Part shown: piece by piece, positions 49,881 through 58,315 of the stretch
Numbering within the stretch: the stretch's first letter is position 1
How the letters are laid out: each line of letters starts with the position of its first letter
Assembly (NCBI GenBank): GCA_965204535.1
Contig: CBDBEV010000001.1
Span: 2,048,001-2,112,000, forward strand
Direction: 5' to 3'
Length of the DNA stretch: 64,000 nt
DNA from: a bacterium
Lineage (GTDB): Bacteria; UBA8248
Notes under the pieces: model-generated
Seen by the model: the letters and a program-made list of their open reading frames with translations, nothing else
Databases searched by the model: none
Told to the model about the DNA's origin: nothing
Made by a program: the position numbers and the translations under genes

Positions 49881-50114
49881 GTTGTGGATTGCGCGCAGGC
49901 ATCGATCAGCTACAATGAAGGTGCTTGCGCGTCGTTTTGAACTCCGGTTGTGGATTGCGCGCAGGCATCGATCAGCTACAATCGTCTCATTGCCAGCCAC
50001 ATTTTCGATTGTGTTGTGGATTGCGCGCAGGCATCGATCAGCTACAATTAAGAAAGCATCTACGGAATTTACGTTGACGTTGTGGATTGCGCGCAGGCAT
50101 CGATCAGCTACAAT
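49881..50114 (+). CRISPR. Type II-C CRISPR array: 4 identical 36-bp repeats (GTTGTGGATTGCGCGCAGGCATCGATCAGCTACAAT) and 3 spacers of 30 bp
   Basis: Repeats at 49881, 49947, 50013 and 50079. The + orientation is inferred from complementarity to the tracrRNA anti-repeat and the GTTGT...GCTACAAT II-C pattern. Confidence 0.97.
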
Positions 50115-50203
50115 TGGTTCTCTCCAAGTGATTGAACCGATTGGGTCAAGGCTCCCGAAGACAGGTCGGAACAATGTGATCTGCTCGGGAGCCTTTTCCG
50201 TCG
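50115..50203. repeat. Duplicated copy of the cas2 3' end and trailer
   Basis: 50176-50203 is identical to 50923-50950 (28 bp), with further matches upstream (gattgaa, aaggctcccg). Confidence 0.85.
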
Positions 50204-50353
50204 TCCCATGAACTTCTCTCTGTAATGTTTAGCTGGGAAATTTGTTTCTCCGCACATCAAAATATGCGCTAAGTAGATTTGTTCTCATCACTTGTTTTCT
50301 ATGAAACGTAATGTATACTTAAATGGTGAAATCACATTAAATGGGCAATAGGC

Positions 50354-50439
50354 CATCCTTGGCGGGACTCGAACCCGCGAGGCTCGTCTAAGCCGCTAGC
50401 TTCCAAGGCTAGTGTGTATACCGATTCCACCACAGGGAT
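50354..50439 (-). tRNA. Non-canonical tRNA: long-variable-arm (Ser/Leu-type) body with UGG (Pro) anticodon
   Basis: Minus strand folds as ATCCCTG TG GTGGAATCGGTATACAC A CTAGC CTTGGAA GCTAG C GGCTT AGAC GAGCC TC GCGGG TTCGAGT CCCGC CAAGGAT G. Full cloverleaf with one acceptor mismatch; no encoded CCA. Confidence 0.85.
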
Positions 50440-50488
50440 AGCCGGTCGGGGGAGTGTTGCATCCCCGGCCTATTGCCTTGTCTTCAAT

Positions 50489-50700
50489 GACCCGTGGCGC
50501 GGGTAAAATCTATACCCTATTTACAGGGTTTAGGTTTGCTTCGCTTATGTGGATCAACCTGCACCGTTTTAGGCCCAGGTTTTTTGCCAGATCGAACTTG
50601 ACGCGGTTTTTTCTGACAATCAGCCATCGGTTTCTCCTTTCTCCTTCGGCCAATATCCGAAGGTGGTTAGAGTAACGGGAGGATTCCCGCGCCACGGGTC
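50489..50700. repeat. Perfect 15-bp inverted repeat enclosing the sORF
   Basis: gacccgtggcgcggg (50489-50503) / cccgcgccacgggtc (50686-50700). Confidence 0.9.
50517..50627 (-). CDS. 36-aa Lys/Pro-rich small protein MADCQKKPRQVRSGKKPGPKTVQVDPHKRSKPKPCK
   Basis: Manual translation; tandem SD AAGGAGAAAGGAG directly upstream of the ATG; below the ORF-track cutoff. Confidence 0.65.
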   Translation of the reverse strand: MADCQKKPRQVRSGKKPGPKTVQVDPHKRSKPKPCK

Positions 50701-50719
50701 TTTAGACCCAAGAGAGGTT

Positions 50720-50748
50720 AATATATATCACTTCTTGTAAGAAATCAA
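50720..50748 (-). promoter_or_regulatory. Sigma70-type promoter for the sORF-tRNA transcript, containing the putative Cas9 target site
   Basis: Minus strand TTGATT(50748-50743)-17 nt-TATATT(50725-50720); the spacer holds the 12-nt match at 50728-50739. Confidence 0.7.
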
Positions 50749-50765
50749 ATATGTAGTGGCAACAG

Positions 50766-50794
50766 TTGCAAACAAATACCAATTCAACTAGATT
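50766..50794 (+). promoter_or_regulatory. Putative promoter for the crRNA-like RNA
   Basis: TTGCAA-17 nt-TAGATT, back-to-back with the minus-strand promoter; alternative -10 TACAAT at 50794-50799. Confidence 0.55.
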
Positions 50795-50799
50795 ACAAT

Positions 50800-50891
50800 T
50801 TATCGTTACAAGGTCACTTCTTGTAGTTGTGAATTGTAACGAGGCGTCGATCAGCTATGGGTCGATTCATTCTTACCGATTGAATCGACCC
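50800..50891 (+). ncRNA. Stand-alone crRNA-like RNA (spacer, degenerate repeat, hairpin); CreA/scaRNA-like
   Basis: Degenerate repeat GTTGTGAATTGTAACGAGGCGTCGATCAGCTATGGG at 50826-50861 (25/36 identical to the array repeat). It is preceded by TCACTTCTTGTA (50814-50825) and followed by an 11-bp hairpin (50859-50869/50881-50891). Confidence 0.75.
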
Positions 50892-50912
50892 GTCGAAGGC
50901 TCCCGGGACGGA

Positions 50913-51242
50913 TCAGAACAGCGTGATCTGCTCGGGAGCCTTTTCCGTCGCCTTGCGGATCTTCCCGTAGAAAATCTTCATCCGCGAGAACTGCTTGTCG
51001 GTGAAAAGCAGAAGCCGCACCTCCCCGTCCGGGGGAAGCGCGGCGTTGATGCGCCGCTCGTGCACCTCAGCGTTCTCGGAACTCGGGCAATGCCGGGCGT
51101 AGACGGAATACTGGAGCATCGTGAACCCGTCTTCGAGCAGGGAGCCGCGAAACTCCTGGTAGGCCTTGCGCGCCGCCTTCGTGTCCGTCGGCAGATCGAA
51201 CATCACCATGAGCCACATGCTGCGCCACCCCCCGAAGCTCAT
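50913..51242 (-). CDS. cas2: CRISPR-associated endoribonuclease Cas2
   Basis: MWLMVMFDLPT, FRGSLLEDGFTMLQYSVYAR, TDKQF, EQITLF. Confidence 0.97.
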   Translation of the reverse strand: MSFGGWRSMWLMVMFDLPTDTKAARKAYQEFRGSLLEDGFTMLQYSVYARHCPSSENAEVHERRINAALPPDGEVRLLLFTDKQFSRMKIFYGKIRKATEKAPEQITLF

Positions 51243-52132
51243 GGCCGGGGGATTTCCGTCTCCTTCTCCTCCCCGCAGAGGACGCGGCGCACGCCCGCGG
51301 CGTAGTATTGAAGGGCGGTGAGAAGCGGATAGGTCTTTCCGCCGAAGCGCACCTCCTCGGCGAGCACGCCCAGGAGTTCGCGCTTTTCTTCTTTCTCCAG
51401 TTCGAGTTCCTCTCCCCAGAACTCCGGTTCATCCCGCATCCGGCGCACCCGGCGGTCCACCATCGGGCGGAGCGGCTCCATCAGGTCGTCCGCCAGGCAG
51501 AAACCGTCGTACTGGTTGTGGTGGTGCAGGCCGAAGGCGGGGTGCAGACCCGCCGCCACGACCGCCCGCGCCGTGGCCGCGCGGATGAGCGAATAGCCGT
51601 AGTTCAAGAGCCGGTTCACGCCCGGAAGCGCGCGGTTTCTTCTGAAATCCGGCCCGAACATCCTCGGCCAGTACATTCTCGCGGCGCGGGCTTCCGCCTG
51701 GGCGGGGTTTTCACGCCCCGCGCGCCCGGCGATGGCCCGGAGCGGTTCGCCGTATTCCTCGAAGGCGTCGAGCGCGTCGGCCTGGGCGAGAATCTTCGCG
51801 CGCACGACCGCCCGCCAGAGGCGGCTCATCCTGCCGGGGGTGGCGGCGGCCTGTTCCTTCACGATCTTGCTGTGCAGGGTGTGCCCGTCCAGCGGGAGCA
51901 GGACGGAGGCGGGCAGGTGCTTCTCGTCGCACATCACGACGGCGACGTTGTTCTTCATGCACTCCGACAGCAAGCCCTGGGAGGGGCGGATGGCCGGGTG
52001 ATCCAGAATCAGGACGCCGAGGTCCTCCACGGGGAGCGACTCTGCGGCGAACTCCTCCCGCTCCACTTTCAATTGCTTTCGGCTGAGCGAGAGACGGGCG
52101 GGACTTCCGATTTCGACGATTCGTTTAATCAT
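51239..52132 (-). CDS. cas1: Type II CRISPR-associated endonuclease Cas1
   Basis: EARAARMYWPRMFG..FRR, NRLLNYGY, GLHH.NQY..FCLADDLMEPLRP. Confidence 0.97.
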   Translation of the reverse strand: MIKRIVEIGSPARLSLSRKQLKVEREEFAAESLPVEDLGVLILDHPAIRPSQGLLSECMKNNVAVVMCDEKHLPASVLLPLDGHTLHSKIVKEQAAATPGRMSRLWRAVVRAKILAQADALDAFEEYGEPLRAIAGRAGRENPAQAEARAARMYWPRMFGPDFRRNRALPGVNRLLNYGYSLIRAATARAVVAAGLHPAFGLHHHNQYDGFCLADDLMEPLRPMVDRRVRRMRDEPEFWGEELELEKEEKRELLGVLAEEVRFGGKTYPLLTALQYYAAGVRRVLCGEEKETEIPRP

Positions 52133-55085
52133 GGGCGGCCTCCAGGTTTCCCAGGGGATCGACGGACATCTTGCGTCCCCTGAGCGTGTTGGGGGATGTG
52201 ATCAAGCGTGTCGTATTGTCATCCAAGAAAGCGGCCGTATGGGCCCGCAGCGTAATTACTTGTCGTTTCCCTATGGCTGAAATAAGTTGAACGCGGTAAA
52301 GATCGCAGCCGTTCTCCGGCACATCGAGTTTCACCAGATCGTTGATGGAAAGCGACATCACGAACCGCTGGCCCTCTTCGCAATCCCGCCGGACAACGGG
52401 AGTCCGCGCACGCCGGGCGCGCCGGGCCGCTTCCATGGCCGAGACGACGCGGCCCGCGCGCCTGCCCGTCTCTATGTTCTCGATGATCTCGATGTGGTGA
52501 TTGTTCCCCAATGCGTAGTACTTGAAGGGTTTTTCTTCCCCTTCTCTCTTGACGCCGAACAATCCATTCGGGTTCAGGTTCTCGGCGACGCGCACCGTCT
52601 CGATTCGCGTTCTGCCCGTTCCCTTGTTTGAATGCTCCAGATAGAGCGGCTTTGCGAAGGCACCCTTGGTCTTTTCACCGTGAGCCTTCATACGCTCTTC
52701 GATCAACGCCCGGATGCGAGGGTCGACGATTTTTTCCACCTGCTTCGTCGTGAGCGATTCGAGGGAGACTCTTCGGACGAAAACGTCCTCTCCATCGTGC
52801 GAGATGCGCCCGTAGGCGGTCTCCTCGTGAAAGGCCCCGCTTATCTTCCTGAGCGGCTGGTGGGAGACGACGATTTTCTCTATCCTCTCCCGAACCTCGG
52901 CATCGAATCCGGGCCAGGGCGGCGGCAACGGAAAACGCCTCTTGCCCAGAATCTCCCGCGACTCTGCGGAAAGATTCGCGATGGAATAAAACAACTTCCG
53001 GTTCGTGAGAGCGACGACCAGCGCGTCGACTGCGTGGTGGCGATGGTCGGCGCGGTTTTTCTCCATGTCCGAATCGTCGGCCAGAATCGAGTTCAGCCCC
53101 CAGGAGCGGCGCAGGGCGGCGGTGGCCTGTCCCGTCGTCACTTCAATGGTTGTGTCGAGGTGCCCGAGATAATCCCTCACCTCGCGGCTGATGTAGCGCG
53201 TGTCGTTGAGCTGGCGTTCGATGAACTTGTCCACCTCGATTTCTTTCTGATCGAAGCGCCTTTTCTTCGTGTAAGGCATCTCCTTCATGGAGAAAACGCG
53301 CTGGCGCATGTCGGAGTCGCCTCCCTTCCATTCATGAGGCGTTTTGTCCCCCTTCTCCCGGTTGGCCGAAGCCAGGGAGAGCACCTTGTTCATGTAGGAA
53401 TCATCGAGCGTCCGGCTGTAGGGGAGAATGTGATCCACCTCGTATGCCGCGCTGAAGATATCTCGACAGCCGATGCTCGCGCCCGTGTAGGGGCATTGGC
53501 CCTTCTGCTCTTTCCACAGCCGGTATCTGAGTCTGTTCCCCCCGTTGTCGGAAACCCCCACCTCCGCTATCACTTTGCGCGCCTCGTCGTTCAGGTCCTG
53601 GTTCTTCCTGTTCTGAGTGTTGAGCTTTATTTTTTGCTTTTGGCCGAGCTTTAAGTCCCGCGCGAGTTCCACGCGGATGCGCGCGGGCTTCCCGTGTTTT
53701 CGAATGACGGCGTTCACCACCTTCCGCACCTCGTTGATCGCTTTCTGGACGATGGGGTTTCTAAGATCCGGGGCGGGCGGAAGCGCGTCCTTCGCGTCGA
53801 TTCGTTTTTGATCCTCGCGCAAATAGCCCGCCGCCTGATAGGCGTCGTGGTAATTCTTCCCCTGCTCCAAGTAGGGCGTAATTCTGCGAATCGCCCGGAG
53901 GGAAAGGTGGGAGTAGCCCGGTTGAAATTCCGTGTTCAAGAAAGCATCCGCCTGATCGTGCGAGAGCTCCCAATGCTCCGTCAGCCGCTTTAGAAGAGTC
54001 TCTTCCTTATGGGTGCTGAACAACTCATCCAGAAACTCTTCCTGCTTGCTCACCGGCATGGCCTCCCACGCCTTTTTCGTGAGGATTTTCCGGACGTCGA
54101 CGAGCGTACGCGCGCCCATCAGGTTCTTCTTCCCGCCCTCTTCGATGTTGAAGGTCTCGCGAGAGTGCAAACCGAGCGCCTTGCGAGCGCCGTTCCAGGT
54201 GAGCGTTTTCTTCTCCCGAAGCTGTTTCTTGATGACTTCTCTTTCGTCTTGTCCGAGCTGTCGATACCCTCCTGTTTCGGGGACTCTGACTTCGAGATTG
54301 TTCACGTCCTGAAGGGTTCGGAACCATTGCGCCTCCGGTCGGCACCAGGGGCATCGCTTCTTGTGCGGCTCGAAGGTGCATTTTCCGACGAGATTCTTCT
54401 GGAGTTTCAGGGGACGCTGGAAGAACAGGATTTTGCGAATCCGCGCGCGGAGCGCATCGGTGAGCAAATCGGGCTTGAACTCCGCCTGCTTACTCCAGAG
54501 TCTGTCGAACTCCTCCTCGTACATAACGCGCTCCGTGCGGCGGTTCCTCTTCTTGGGCTGGTCGGCCAGAAACTCACCCAGCGTGCGGGAGTGCGACTGC
54601 TCGATTTCCCTCCTGAGCTCTCCGATCTCCTGCTTGACGACGCCGTCCTCTTTTTTCTTTTCCCCGGAATCGCGCACCTTGCGGTTGCTGAGGAATCCAC
54701 GCCTCTGGTTCAGGTGGAAAAGGGCGCGCCCGAACTCGTGGGGAGTCAATTCATTGTCCAGCCCCCGCTTTCTGATCTCGTAGGGGTCGGCGCGGTGGAA
54801 CAACTCCTCCCGATCGTGTTCGTTCTCCGGCATAAGCTCGCACCGAATGAGTTCGCTTTGAAGGGTGTCGCGGCGCATCTTCCGCCTGAAACGCTGGCGG
54901 CGGGCCTGGCGGGCGTCGCGCCGCTTGTGGTTCTTGGGGGTCTTCTTCTGCCTGTCGACCATTTCCTGAAACACGCGGACGCCGATTGCTTCGATGCCCT
55001 GCGGATCGCCGGCTTCGTCCTCTTCGACGAGCGCCCAGCCGATGGAATTCGGGCCCAGATCGAGGCCCAACGTAAGATGGCGCAT
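52125..55085 (-). CDS. cas9: Type II-C Cas9, 986 aa
   Basis: RuvC-I LGLDLGPNSIGWA, Arg-rich bridge helix, RRGF, NPIVQKA/RVELAR, HNH DHILPYSR..DDSYMNKVL....NREK, RQLNDTRY, RuvC-III HHAVDA; no csn2 or cas4. Confidence 0.97.
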   Translation of the reverse strand: MRHLTLGLDLGPNSIGWALVEEDEAGDPQGIEAIGVRVFQEMVDRQKKTPKNHKRRDARQARRQRFRRKMRRDTLQSELIRCELMPENEHDREELFHRADPYEIRKRGLDNELTPHEFGRALFHLNQRRGFLSNRKVRDSGEKKKEDGVVKQEIGELRREIEQSHSRTLGEFLADQPKKRNRRTERVMYEEEFDRLWSKQAEFKPDLLTDALRARIRKILFFQRPLKLQKNLVGKCTFEPHKKRCPWCRPEAQWFRTLQDVNNLEVRVPETGGYRQLGQDEREVIKKQLREKKTLTWNGARKALGLHSRETFNIEEGGKKNLMGARTLVDVRKILTKKAWEAMPVSKQEEFLDELFSTHKEETLLKRLTEHWELSHDQADAFLNTEFQPGYSHLSLRAIRRITPYLEQGKNYHDAYQAAGYLREDQKRIDAKDALPPAPDLRNPIVQKAINEVRKVVNAVIRKHGKPARIRVELARDLKLGQKQKIKLNTQNRKNQDLNDEARKVIAEVGVSDNGGNRLRYRLWKEQKGQCPYTGASIGCRDIFSAAYEVDHILPYSRTLDDSYMNKVLSLASANREKGDKTPHEWKGGDSDMRQRVFSMKEMPYTKKRRFDQKEIEVDKFIERQLNDTRYISREVRDYLGHLDTTIEVTTGQATAALRRSWGLNSILADDSDMEKNRADHRHHAVDALVVALTNRKLFYSIANLSAESREILGKRRFPLPPPWPGFDAEVRERIEKIVVSHQPLRKISGAFHEETAYGRISHDGEDVFVRRVSLESLTTKQVEKIVDPRIRALIEERMKAHGEKTKGAFAKPLYLEHSNKGTGRTRIETVRVAENLNPNGLFGVKREGEEKPFKYYALGNNHHIEIIENIETGRRAGRVVSAMEAARRARRARTPVVRRDCEEGQRFVMSLSINDLVKLDVPENGCDLYRVQLISAIGKRQVITLRAHTAAFLDDNTTRLITSPNTLRGRKMSVDPLGNLEAAHD

Positions 55086-55133: not shown

Positions 55134-55135
55134 AG

Positions 55136-55270
55136 ATTATAGCTGATCGATGCCTGCGTTGCTTTTCATAACAAGAAGATTTCGTAACGAATTCTTCGCA
55201 GGCAATTCCCCGGAACGGGGAAACGACCTAACCCTCGCGACGCCTCGGCCTCTCCGGGGGTTCATTTTTT
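55136..55270 (+). ncRNA. tracrRNA
   Basis: Anti-repeat ATTATAGCTGATCGATGCCTGCGTTGCTTTTCATAAC (55136-55172), then AAG, hairpins (gaagatttcg..cgaattcttc; ttcccc..ggggaa) and a T run; divergent from cas9. Confidence 0.88.
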
Positions 55271-56283: not shown

Positions 56284-56371
56284 GTATTTTCAACAATTGA
56301 TGAAAAAATAAATTAAGTGAAATATATTGACAATTTCATTAAATATGGTATTTTCATCAAATGATGAAATA
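56284..56371. promoter_or_regulatory. Two imperfect palindromic operators flanking a TTGACA promoter
   Basis: gtattttcaacaattgatgaaaa (56284) and gtattttcatcaaatgatgaaata (56348); TTGACA at 56327-56332. Confidence 0.6.
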
Positions 56372-57470
56372 TGATGAAAAATTGAAAGGACAAGATATTG
56401 AGTTTGTCGACGCTGTGCGCGATCTTCTCGAACATGTACCGCATGTGGAAGTTGGTCGGGTTGACTATGCTTCCAATATAGGACGCGAATATCAAATAGA
56501 TTTAAAGATCGGTCTAAGTCGTGACGGGGTAAATTATGAACTCATCATAGAAATGAAATCGAATGGGGCGCCACAGTTTGTGCGCTCCGCGATCTATCAA
56601 CTTAACAGCTATGTTGCGCATTCACTTCAATTTAGACACGCGGATGACAGCCGTCGTTTGATTCCGATGGTTGTCAGCCCCTACCTATCCCCGGAGTCGC
56701 GCGCAATCTGCAAAGCTCACAATGTCGCTTATCTCGATCTTTTCGGGAACGCGCATCTCACTTTCGATAGTGTCTATATTGATCGGGCCGTTGCAGGTAA
56801 GCCGAAGTCCGAAACCCGTGCTCTGCGGTCGATTTTCACCCCGAAGGCAGGCGCTATCCTGCGCGTTATGCTGCGTGATCCGGGCCGCGCATGGCGTGTC
56901 GCAAACTTGGCTGAAACAGCCAATACAAGCCTTGGTCATGTGAGCAATGTTCGCAAAGCTTTATTCGAGCGTGAATGGATCAAACAACAGGACGACGGCG
57001 GAGTCCTTGCCAAGCCGGACGCGCTGCTGAAAACCTGGCGAGAGAATTATCGCCGCCCGTCCGGTCATCGCATCACCGGATACACGCATCTCCACGGTGA
57101 GCAGCTTGAAAAGCGGCTGTTGGGAGCACTTAATTCGTATCCACAGAACCCCCGCGCGATCTACTCATTCCATTCCGCCGCCCAATGGATCGCACCTTAT
57201 GGCCGAGACGGCACATATAATTTCTATTCGGACGAGACAGGTGTTCAAACCTTGACTGAGGCATTGCGACTGGCGTCTGTTGCAAAAGGATCGAATGTCG
57301 TCATTCGTGTTCTCAAGGATGAGAGTCTGTTCGACGACGCGATCGAACCTAGGCCGGATATTTTCTGCACCAGCCCAATCGTCACGTATTTTGATTTGTG
57401 GAATGGCAATGACCGAGACCGTGAAGCTGCCGAGTATATAGCAAGGGAGTCCTTCCCGTGGCTAGAATAG
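56361..57470 (+). CDS. Type IV TA AbiEi-like antitoxin/transcriptional regulator
   Basis: PYLSPESRAIC....YLDLFGN, central wHTH (WRVANLAETANTSLGHVS), C-terminal SPIVTYFDL....RDREAAE; overlaps the downstream NTase gene. Confidence 0.72.
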   Translation: MMKYDEKLKGQDIEFVDAVRDLLEHVPHVEVGRVDYASNIGREYQIDLKIGLSRDGVNYELIIEMKSNGAPQFVRSAIYQLNSYVAHSLQFRHADDSRRLIPMVVSPYLSPESRAICKAHNVAYLDLFGNAHLTFDSVYIDRAVAGKPKSETRALRSIFTPKAGAILRVMLRDPGRAWRVANLAETANTSLGHVSNVRKALFEREWIKQQDDGGVLAKPDALLKTWRENYRRPSGHRITGYTHLHGEQLEKRLLGALNSYPQNPRAIYSFHSAAQWIAPYGRDGTYNFYSDETGVQTLTEALRLASVAKGSNVVIRVLKDESLFDDAIEPRPDIFCTSPIVTYFDLWNGNDRDREAAEYIARESFPWLE

Positions 57471-58315
57471 AACAGCGGTTCGCCCATGATTATGATTTTC
57501 GTTCCACTGCGGCGGTCAAGTCCGTATTGATCGAGATCGGACAGATCCTGGGTAGTTTCCAGGGCAAGTTCGTGGTGATCGGGGGCGCCGTTCCCTGGCT
57601 GTTGCCGAGCGAATCCAATATGTCCCATGTTGGCACTCTAGACGTGGATCTGTGTCTCGACGCCGAGGCCCTTGGCGATCGGGAATACGCCCGGCTCGTC
57701 AAATCCCTTCAGAGGCAGGGTTACAATCAGGACGAAAATTTTCGCCCCTTTCAGCTTATGCGTAACGTGCCTTCTCAAGACGGCGGGGCTGACATCAATG
57801 TCGTCGTGGATTTTCTCATGCCGCGCGGAGTCGAGATAGCGAAGAACATCCCGCCGCTTGTCAGCGAGTTCGCCGTACAGCGCGCCGACGGCGGTGACCT
57901 TGCGCTTAGATTCTACGAGGTGGTCCCCATCGAGGGCGAAATGCCCGGCGGTGGCCGCAATCGCGTGCATATTGCCGTGGCGTCGATCCCGGCGCTGTTG
58001 GCCATGAAAGGATACGCCATCGCCAATCGTTTGAAACAAAAAGACGCCTATGACATTTACTTCTCCGTCCGCAACTTTCTAGGCGGGCTGGACGCTCTCG
58101 TCGAAGCAACGAAGCCGCTCCTCGAAGTCGATTCGGCGCGAGAAGGCTATCGTTTGCTCTCGGAAAAATTCCGCAACGTGGATGATTTCGGTCCGACCAG
58201 CGTGCGGCAATTCTTGGAAGGTTCCGACGCGCTCGGCGAGCGCACTGCGGATCAATGGCAACAGGACGCCTTCGGTCAAGTCGACGCATGGCTCAAAGGA
58301 CTTGGCTTGAGGTAA
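57458..58315 (+). CDS. AbiEii-like nucleotidyltransferase toxin
   Basis: VVIGGAVP, HVGTLDVDL, LLAMK, KQKDAYDI. Confidence 0.75.
   Translation: MARIEQRFAHDYDFRSTAAVKSVLIEIGQILGSFQGKFVVIGGAVPWLLPSESNMSHVGTLDVDLCLDAEALGDREYARLVKSLQRQGYNQDENFRPFQLMRNVPSQDGGADINVVVDFLMPRGVEIAKNIPPLVSEFAVQRADGGDLALRFYEVVPIEGEMPGGGRNRVHIAVASIPALLAMKGYAIANRLKQKDAYDIYFSVRNFLGGLDALVEATKPLLEVDSAREGYRLLSEKFRNVDDFGPTSVRQFLEGSDALGERTADQWQQDAFGQVDAWLKGLGLR

Follow-up and report, generated by a model that had tools for sequence, protein, structure and literature searches.

The window, a 64,000-nt stretch of a bacterial genome, carries between the cas2 gene and the CRISPR array of an intact type II-C locus a 0.7-kb insert (50204-50912) that is best read, with a probability of roughly one half, as a Cas9-repressed, CreTA-like toxin-antitoxin module serving addiction or anti-anti-CRISPR defence. 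According to this reading, a scaRNA-type guide encoded on the insert would pair with the host tracrRNA and load Cas9, which would then be parked, likely without cutting, on a 12-nt match between the -35 and -10 boxes of a neighbouring promoter, where it would block RNA polymerase and keep transcription of the cargo off. The core cargo would be a 36-aa basic microprotein, with a leucine-bodied tRNA-like RNA carrying a UGG anticodon as an optional second cistron. Loss of Cas9 or the tracrRNA, or their inhibition by an anti-CRISPR, would set off production of the cargo and bring the cell to a halt, so that cas locus and insert alike would be maintained in the population. Because a hairpin-enclosed 36-aa ORF and a tRNA-like gene reside on the same insert, what might otherwise pass for simple regulation becomes a likely CreTA-like module.

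Anatomy and distribution of the insert

The locus into which the module is inserted consists of the following elements:

52125..55085, minus strand: cas9, 986 aa, type II-C-like, with RuvC and HNH motifs kept
51239..52132, minus strand: cas1
50913..51242, minus strand: cas2, intact, its 3' end duplicated at 50160-50203
55134..55270 (ends approximate), plus strand: tracrRNA, with anti-repeat, nexus, hairpins and U-tract, conserved in loci L001-L003
49881..50114, plus strand: CRISPR array, 4 repeats of 36 nt and 3 spacers
50115..50203: original array flank and remnant cas2 3' end, the left copy of a duplication spaced by 747 bp

The best solved relatives of the cas9 product are Cas9s, which we take to be of type II-C. 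The duplicated stretch comprises the final 44 bp of cas2 together with the flank of the array, and its two copies, 747 bp apart, bound the insert; contigs with an empty site (runs X5 and X11) skip exactly 747 bp. Assemblies of long contigs (runs X1-X3), among which the source sample may be included, cover 50086-50942 with zero differences. Close copies of this cas2 number 8 in 7 of 51 genomes; 7 of them adjoin an array, and 2 of these, in the genome of the window (G000) and in a second genome (G023), carry the insert, which is absent from 5 of the 7 array-bearing loci of this cas clade. The array directly follows cas2 with no insert in five related loci (L001, L002, L003, L008 and L021). In addition, short diverged contig pieces that match the left junction of the insert (X7, 50177-50240) and the target promoter (X9, 50718-50754) hint at further lineages of the module.

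The insert is not built as an IS1595 transporter IS, which consists of a transposase and terminal inverted repeats around a cargo: no match to an IS1595 transposase was found in the window, and a candidate insert end at 50307-50326 has no match at any other locus. It is likely that the cargo was captured from that of a mobile element.

Two further arrangements were noted around this locus and in the same genome. An AbiEi/AbiEii-like type IV toxin-antitoxin pair, recognized by weak Pfam matches, lies at 56361-58315 on the plus strand, about 1 kb past the tracrRNA; AbiEii-type enzymes act on tRNA ends. A second cas1-cas2 copy, 96% identical to that of the window, is found at G000:C1:198963-203683. 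There an array is lacking, the tracr gene is truncated and the cas9 is a different, convergent one; another cas9-like gene is located at the start of C2.

A putative guide seed matched to the neighbouring predicted promoter

The guide and its presumed target are made up of these elements:

50814..50825, plus strand: guide seed
50826..50861, plus strand: degenerate repeat, with predicted tracrRNA pairing retained
50859..50891, plus strand: 11-bp hairpin 3' of the repeat (fold prediction)
50766..50799, plus strand: candidate guide promoter, TTGCAA-17-TAGATT, with an overlapping TACAAT
50728..50739, plus strand: 12-nt target, between the -35 and -10 boxes
50740..50747, plus strand: putative PAM AGAAATCA, overlapping the -35 box and identical in G023
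50720..50748, minus strand: predicted sigma-70 cargo promoter, TTGATT-17-TATATT, with the -35 box at 50743-50748 and the -10 box at 50720-50725

The original prediction held that the 12-mer TCACTTCTTGTA occurs twice, once directly 5' of a degenerate repeat, in the position of a Cas9 seed, and once inside a promoter, and this is confirmed. The 12-mer occupies 50728-50739 and 50814-50825 and has no third copy in the window, even when one mismatch is allowed; two copies contrast with 0.06 expected, none of 100 shuffles reaches two, and dinucleotide shuffles of the insert reproduce the recurrence once in 20,000. The genome contains one further perfect copy (C1:175535), with a different flank, where about 0.5 would be expected by chance by our estimate. 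The guide copy immediately precedes the degenerate repeat at 50826-50861 and, given that the tracrRNA pairs with plus-strand repeats, so that crRNAs read spacer-then-repeat on the plus strand, it takes the place of the PAM-proximal seed. The target copy falls, as proposed, within TTGATT-17-TATATT on the minus strand; guide/target identity ends after 12 nt, and AGAAATCA overlaps the -35 box. Taken by itself, the promoter call does not exceed chance expectation (1 found against 1.4 expected).

The degenerate repeat differs from the array repeat at 11 of 36 positions, and yet retains full predicted pairing with the tracrRNA, with a duplex energy of -52.0 kcal/mol compared with -53.1 for the canonical array repeat. 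Random mutants of the repeat with 11 changed positions average -24.5, and 0 of 2000 reach -52.0. In common with scaRNAs, the insert has a degenerate repeat that lies away from the array and is predicted to form a duplex with the tracrRNA, and a PAM-proximal match within the range of about 11-15 nt (12 nt here, 13 nt in G023) falls in a predicted promoter. That Cas9 with tracrRNA and this guide binds without cutting and represses the promoter is, in our view, likely. A search for RNA data sets with this DNA listed none, an outcome that carries no information on expression. The 11-bp hairpin is a possible 3' end of the guide RNA, going by the fold prediction. At the other end, TTGCAA-17-TAGATT is absent from the calls of the promoter scan, and 50766-50799 is possibly a decayed upstream repeat. 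Autorepression of cas9 in the manner of tracr-L was considered and rejected: the 12-mer has no additional match in the window at one mismatch, and hence none at the cas9 promoter.

The PAM itself was sought through the spacers. Comparison of 78 and then 196 spacers with the own genome and the fetched loci gave no credible protospacer, and four arrays searched against 51 genomes matched nothing beyond arrays, tracr genes, solitary repeats and GC-rich stretches of weak similarity (4-6 mismatches). Four spacer patterns (spacer 1 of the window left out) gave two 20-nt matches in viral contigs, with 7-8 mismatches over 30 nt, which were treated as chance, and BLAST of spacers against phages and plasmids returned only matches with E values of 0.4-0.8. 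Viral sequences were also scanned for the repeat, for both hairpin arms and for the target with its flank, and no match was found. Conservation of the flank is weak evidence for the putative PAM, since it overlaps the -35 box, which partly explains why it is kept.

Repeat-like sites far from any array were also seen elsewhere, at C1:732904, C2:480346 and C2:468814 of G000 and in L046, L047, L049-L052, L182, L183, L193, L195 and L196, none with a nearby seed match; several lie in genomes without this cas2. They may be ectopic insertions or decoy RNAs.

Conservation in a second genome

In G023 the module occupies the same site, flanked by cas2 and the array, and the cas2 end is likewise duplicated. 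The cassette is inverted there, so that guide and ORF share a strand, with the guide downstream, and the tRNA-like gene is absent. A loss of the 12-mer match in relatives would have spoken against the original prediction; G023 keeps the seed in both guide and target despite the rearrangement, the match extending to 13 nt, and the target with its 9-nt 3' flank AGAAATCAA is identical between the window and G023 over 21 nt. The bases on either side of this block differ, as do the -10 box, the 5' part of the guide and the repeat, and the third codon positions of cas1 are only 66% identical. The promoter counterpart reads TTGATT-17-TAGTAT, and the degenerate repeat of G023 pairs less well with the tracrRNA (-43.5 versus -54.5). 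The 21-mer occurs in 2 of 51 genomes, namely the two with the module. Because the seed is identical in both, this constitutes conservation rather than covariation, between two modules (n = 2) that share an ancestor.

The microprotein and the tRNA-like gene

The cargo downstream of the targeted promoter comprises:

50686..50712, minus strand: 5' arm of a hairpin that encloses the ORF, its core kept in G023
50517..50627, minus strand: ORF for a 36-aa basic microprotein (9 K, 6 P and 3 R; pI 10.5) with a strong Shine-Dalgarno sequence, a candidate toxin
50477..50503, minus strand: 3' arm of the hairpin
50354..50439, minus strand: tRNA-like gene with a leucine-type body, a UGG (Pro) anticodon, G73, no encoded CCA and extended acceptor pairing

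The ORF is thus framed by a 27-nt inverted repeat and followed by the tRNA-like gene, and the cargo transcript folds far better than its shuffles (z = -5.75). Between the window and G023, the ORF differs at 7, 3 and 18 first, second and third codon positions, and among 33 codons 14 changes are synonymous and 8 non-synonymous; of the differences listed between run X4 and the window ORF, 8 of 10 are at third positions. This pattern indicates that the ORF is under purifying selection and constrained as a protein. It would accordingly not be a CreT-type RNA toxin, a very short ORF that acts through toxic codons and not through its protein, because it has 36 codons, is conserved at the protein level with synonymous change and contains no PP pair.

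No match to a Pfam or PHROG family was found for the microprotein, nor a tblastn match for its ORF in plasmids or phages, and AlphaFold2 predicts no secondary structure (pTM 0.18). Matches in an atlas search scored 0.80 or lower, and none had a name. A basic and unfolded peptide rich in Pro, Lys and Arg could, speculatively, bind nucleic acid or the ribosome, and in composition it bears a likeness to proline-rich antimicrobial peptides. At E ≤ 0.001 the family has 9 representatives, and 12 viral stretches and no fewer than 118 metagenomic ones carry its motif. Enclosure by a hairpin is clear in only 8 of 54 close-type members, as classed by a rough pattern that misplaced L064; matches to the arm motif at G023:452332 and in G031 were dismissed as unrelated. 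Among 129 neighbouring proteins, given as raw counts with no background set, there are 6 IS1595 transposases (at 6 loci), 6 TIR, 6 restriction-modification and 3 Panacea proteins, along with single cases of Abi_C, AbiU2, PIN, HigB, Schlafen and WYL. In the available sequence of the 6 loci with an IS1595 transposase no tRNA was seen. No Cas protein is found among these 129 and no array was seen; homologs stand at many loci with neither a cas gene nearby nor an array, so Cas9 control is not required by the protein in every setting. A layout like that of CreTA and the kinds of genes found near the family are the reasons why, if the promoter is repressed, the cargo is somewhat more probably toxic or growth-inhibiting than harmless.

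The tRNA-like gene is closest to tRNA-Leu among ordinary host tRNAs. LeuRS favours A73, and SerRS favours a long arm with G73. An ordinary tRNA-Pro can be rejected, as the genome has its own normal tRNA-Pro(UGG) at C2:2177232. An obligatory partnership with the microprotein was rejected too, since the tRNA-like gene is absent in G023 and stands directly downstream of the ORF in only 2 of 74 unique loci (those with at least 300 nt of downstream sequence; the model search covered 100 loci, and one spurious call at L112 was dropped). In six such tRNA-like genes, with UGG, UUA, GCG or GUC anticodons, the stems are kept, with 92% of cells paired and double changes in 13 of 25 pairs, a covariation that any tRNA-derived set would show.

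Related or odd tRNA genes were encountered in several other places. G000:C2:1733066-1733157 (L011) is a second Leu-bodied tRNA-like gene, with a GCG anticodon and without CCA, and upstream of it are hairpins and an ORF of 102 aa resembling a GIY-YIG nuclease; the downstream end of the tRNA-like gene resembles that of a copy in G030 beside an IS1595 transposase. At G000:C2:2515268-2516894 an IS1595-like transposase is situated between two unusual tRNA genes that are annotated as Val(TAC) and Ser(TGA) and have bodies resembling Arg and Glu tRNAs. G000:C1:919698-919781 is a near-copy of the host tRNA-Leu(GAG) with a GCG anticodon and a damaged acceptor stem, possibly a relic. In a viral contig (L026:1428-1511) a Leu-bodied tRNA whose UUA anticodon reads ochre comes after the microprotein ORF, and the 2.2-kb stretch L035:801-3019 has terminal inverted repeats around a microprotein and a UGG tRNA-like gene, with no match to an IS1595 transposase.

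Relation to known systems

Repression by Cas9 through short matches has been described for scaRNA and tracr-L, and CreTA and CrePA have been described for type I systems (10.1101/2023.03.03.530964; 10.64898/2026.06.01.729453; PMC9458426 for the former; 10.1101/2024.01.05.574328; 10.64898/2026.06.02.729485; PMC12737573; PMC9458426 for the latter), with PMC6199352 and 10.1101/2024.10.29.618823 also among the sources on scaRNA/tracr-L repression and on CreTA, CrePA and CRISIS of type I. With CreTA/CrePA (types I-B and I-F, including the proline-codon CreT of P. aeruginosa), the insert shares a guide built on a degenerate repeat, which partially matches, at its PAM-proximal end, the promoter of a small cargo within the cas locus, a strong Shine-Dalgarno sequence with a GC-rich hairpin, and patchy presence among related loci; in both the window and G023, guide and predicted repressed small gene are linked in this way. 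It differs in that the effector would be Cas9 with tracrRNA, whereas the accounts of CreTA/CrePA consulted have Cascade or Csy with Cas6 processing. Its cargo, too, is distinct: a conserved protein of 36 aa that lacks a PP pair and bears no relation to the KilAC protein CreP, accompanied by an optional tRNA-like gene. Lacking a class 1 effector and a Cas6-processed guide, the module would work like CreTA and not be a member of that group as described.

With the scaRNA of Francisella novicida (II-B), other Cas9-regulating scaRNAs and tracr-L, the insert shares a single degenerate repeat and a short tracrRNA-pairing guide; in those systems active Cas9 is led to a promoter through 11-15 matched bases (PMC9458426; 10.1101/2023.03.03.530964; 10.64898/2026.06.01.729453). 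The difference lies in the target, here a cargo gene on the same 0.7-kb insert instead of a distant host gene or the cas9 promoter. The II-C scaRNA of N. meningitidis is described as acting post-transcriptionally, largely without Cas9 (PMC13431127). In CRISIS, where crlRNAs supervise defence genes, a crRNA-like RNA also represses a linked accessory gene with relatives in defence islands, but the cases consulted concern type I loci and larger defence proteins (10.1101/2024.12.27.630466). The tRNA-like gene recalls allo-tRNAs and irregular tRNAs near toxin-antitoxin systems, which are likewise long-armed, carry mismatched anticodons and occur near toxin-antitoxin or mobile genes (PMC5389517), GCG and GUC anticodons being seen here as well. 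However, its modelled 7/5 fold and leucine-type D arm set it apart from allo-tRNAs, which have an 8/4 or 9/3 acceptor branch and a Sec-like D arm (PMC5389517).

In the literature searched, to which the supplementary tables on mini-arrays, scaRNA and CRISIS did not belong, no CreTA with a non-type I effector and no Cas9-repressed toxin was found; nor did it hold anything on Leu-bodied tRNAs with Pro anticodons in mobile elements, most subscription papers lying outside its scope. In its most far-reaching version, the preferred reading would present the insert as the first toxin-antitoxin module under Cas9 control. Complete in itself, it would recombine into the cas2 end, employ a tracrRNA-dependent guide as antitoxin and silence a new family of basic, translation-targeting microproteins, here along with a tRNA that would wrongly place Leu or Ser at proline codons once an anti-CRISPR disables Cas9. 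This version, taken as a whole, is rather doubtful.

Competing explanations

The explanation that survives best beside the toxin-antitoxin module grants that Cas9 represses the promoter and takes the cargo to be a helper or back-up function and not a suicide toxin: a microprotein that binds nucleic acid or tunes translation, and a tRNA that might recode CCA, both turned on while Cas9 is occupied or inhibited, much like CRISIS or the scaRNA of F. novicida. All of the guide/target evidence fits it. Members of the family are often found next to defence and IS1595 genes with no guide present, and in 8 genes of the window CCA is used least among the Pro codons (5 of 257). The guide of G023, downstream of the ORF and on its strand, would form a self-limiting feedback loop. 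We nonetheless hold it unlikely, as insertion in a cas locus together with a Cas-dependent repressor of its own is the selfish layout of CreTA, and the strong Shine-Dalgarno sequence and hairpin resemble small-RNA and type I toxin messages (10.64898/2026.06.02.729485).

A different origin is suggested by the guide itself. The seed contains CTTCTT, complementary to the conserved nexus of the tracrRNA, and the reverse strand of the tracr gene of G025 reads TCACTTCTTGT, with 11 of 12 seed letters; this complementarity hints that the guide arose from an inverted tracr copy. The changed TAACG segment of the degenerate repeat resembles the anti-repeat. Moreover, in a guide that started at 50800-50810 the 5' part is predicted to fold onto the seed, leaving it partly occluded (unpaired at about 0.4-0.5, rising to 0.83 when trimmed to 12 nt), and in the co-fold of G023 part of the seed pairs with the tracrRNA. 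The repeat-like RNA could, on these grounds, be mainly a decoy for tracrRNA or Cas9, or a relic of an inverted tracrRNA copy, its promoter match inherited and unused. This is quite improbable, because it leaves unexplained why a second exact copy sits between -35 and -10 boxes in two genomes with diverged flanks.

Finally, neutral debris, that is, a mobile cassette that recombined at the cas2 end with one duplicated repeat and a leftover 12-mer, would account for the duplicated cas2 end and flank and agrees with the many solitary repeat-like sites of these genomes without a nearby target (in 27 loci and the own genome, no other seed/target pair was found) and with the view that most solitary type II repeats look non-functional (10.1101/2023.03.03.530964), but it is hard to credit when tracrRNA pairing is kept against 11 changes, both 12-mer copies are retained exactly through an inversion, and the ORF is under purifying selection.

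Biological significance

A 2025 review asks whether modules of the CreTA type exist beyond type I systems (PMC12737573). The insert offers a concrete Cas9 candidate for such a module, one that at under 1 kb could be rebuilt in E. coli with four parts. If its cargo is toxic, the microprotein would represent a new family of toxins with at least 118 metagenomic loci, and the module would be a natural anti-anti-CRISPR layer for Cas9 that could readily serve to select for II-C anti-CRISPRs. A first functional handle would also be gained on the tRNA-like genes of mobile elements that combine a leucine-type body with a proline anticodon.
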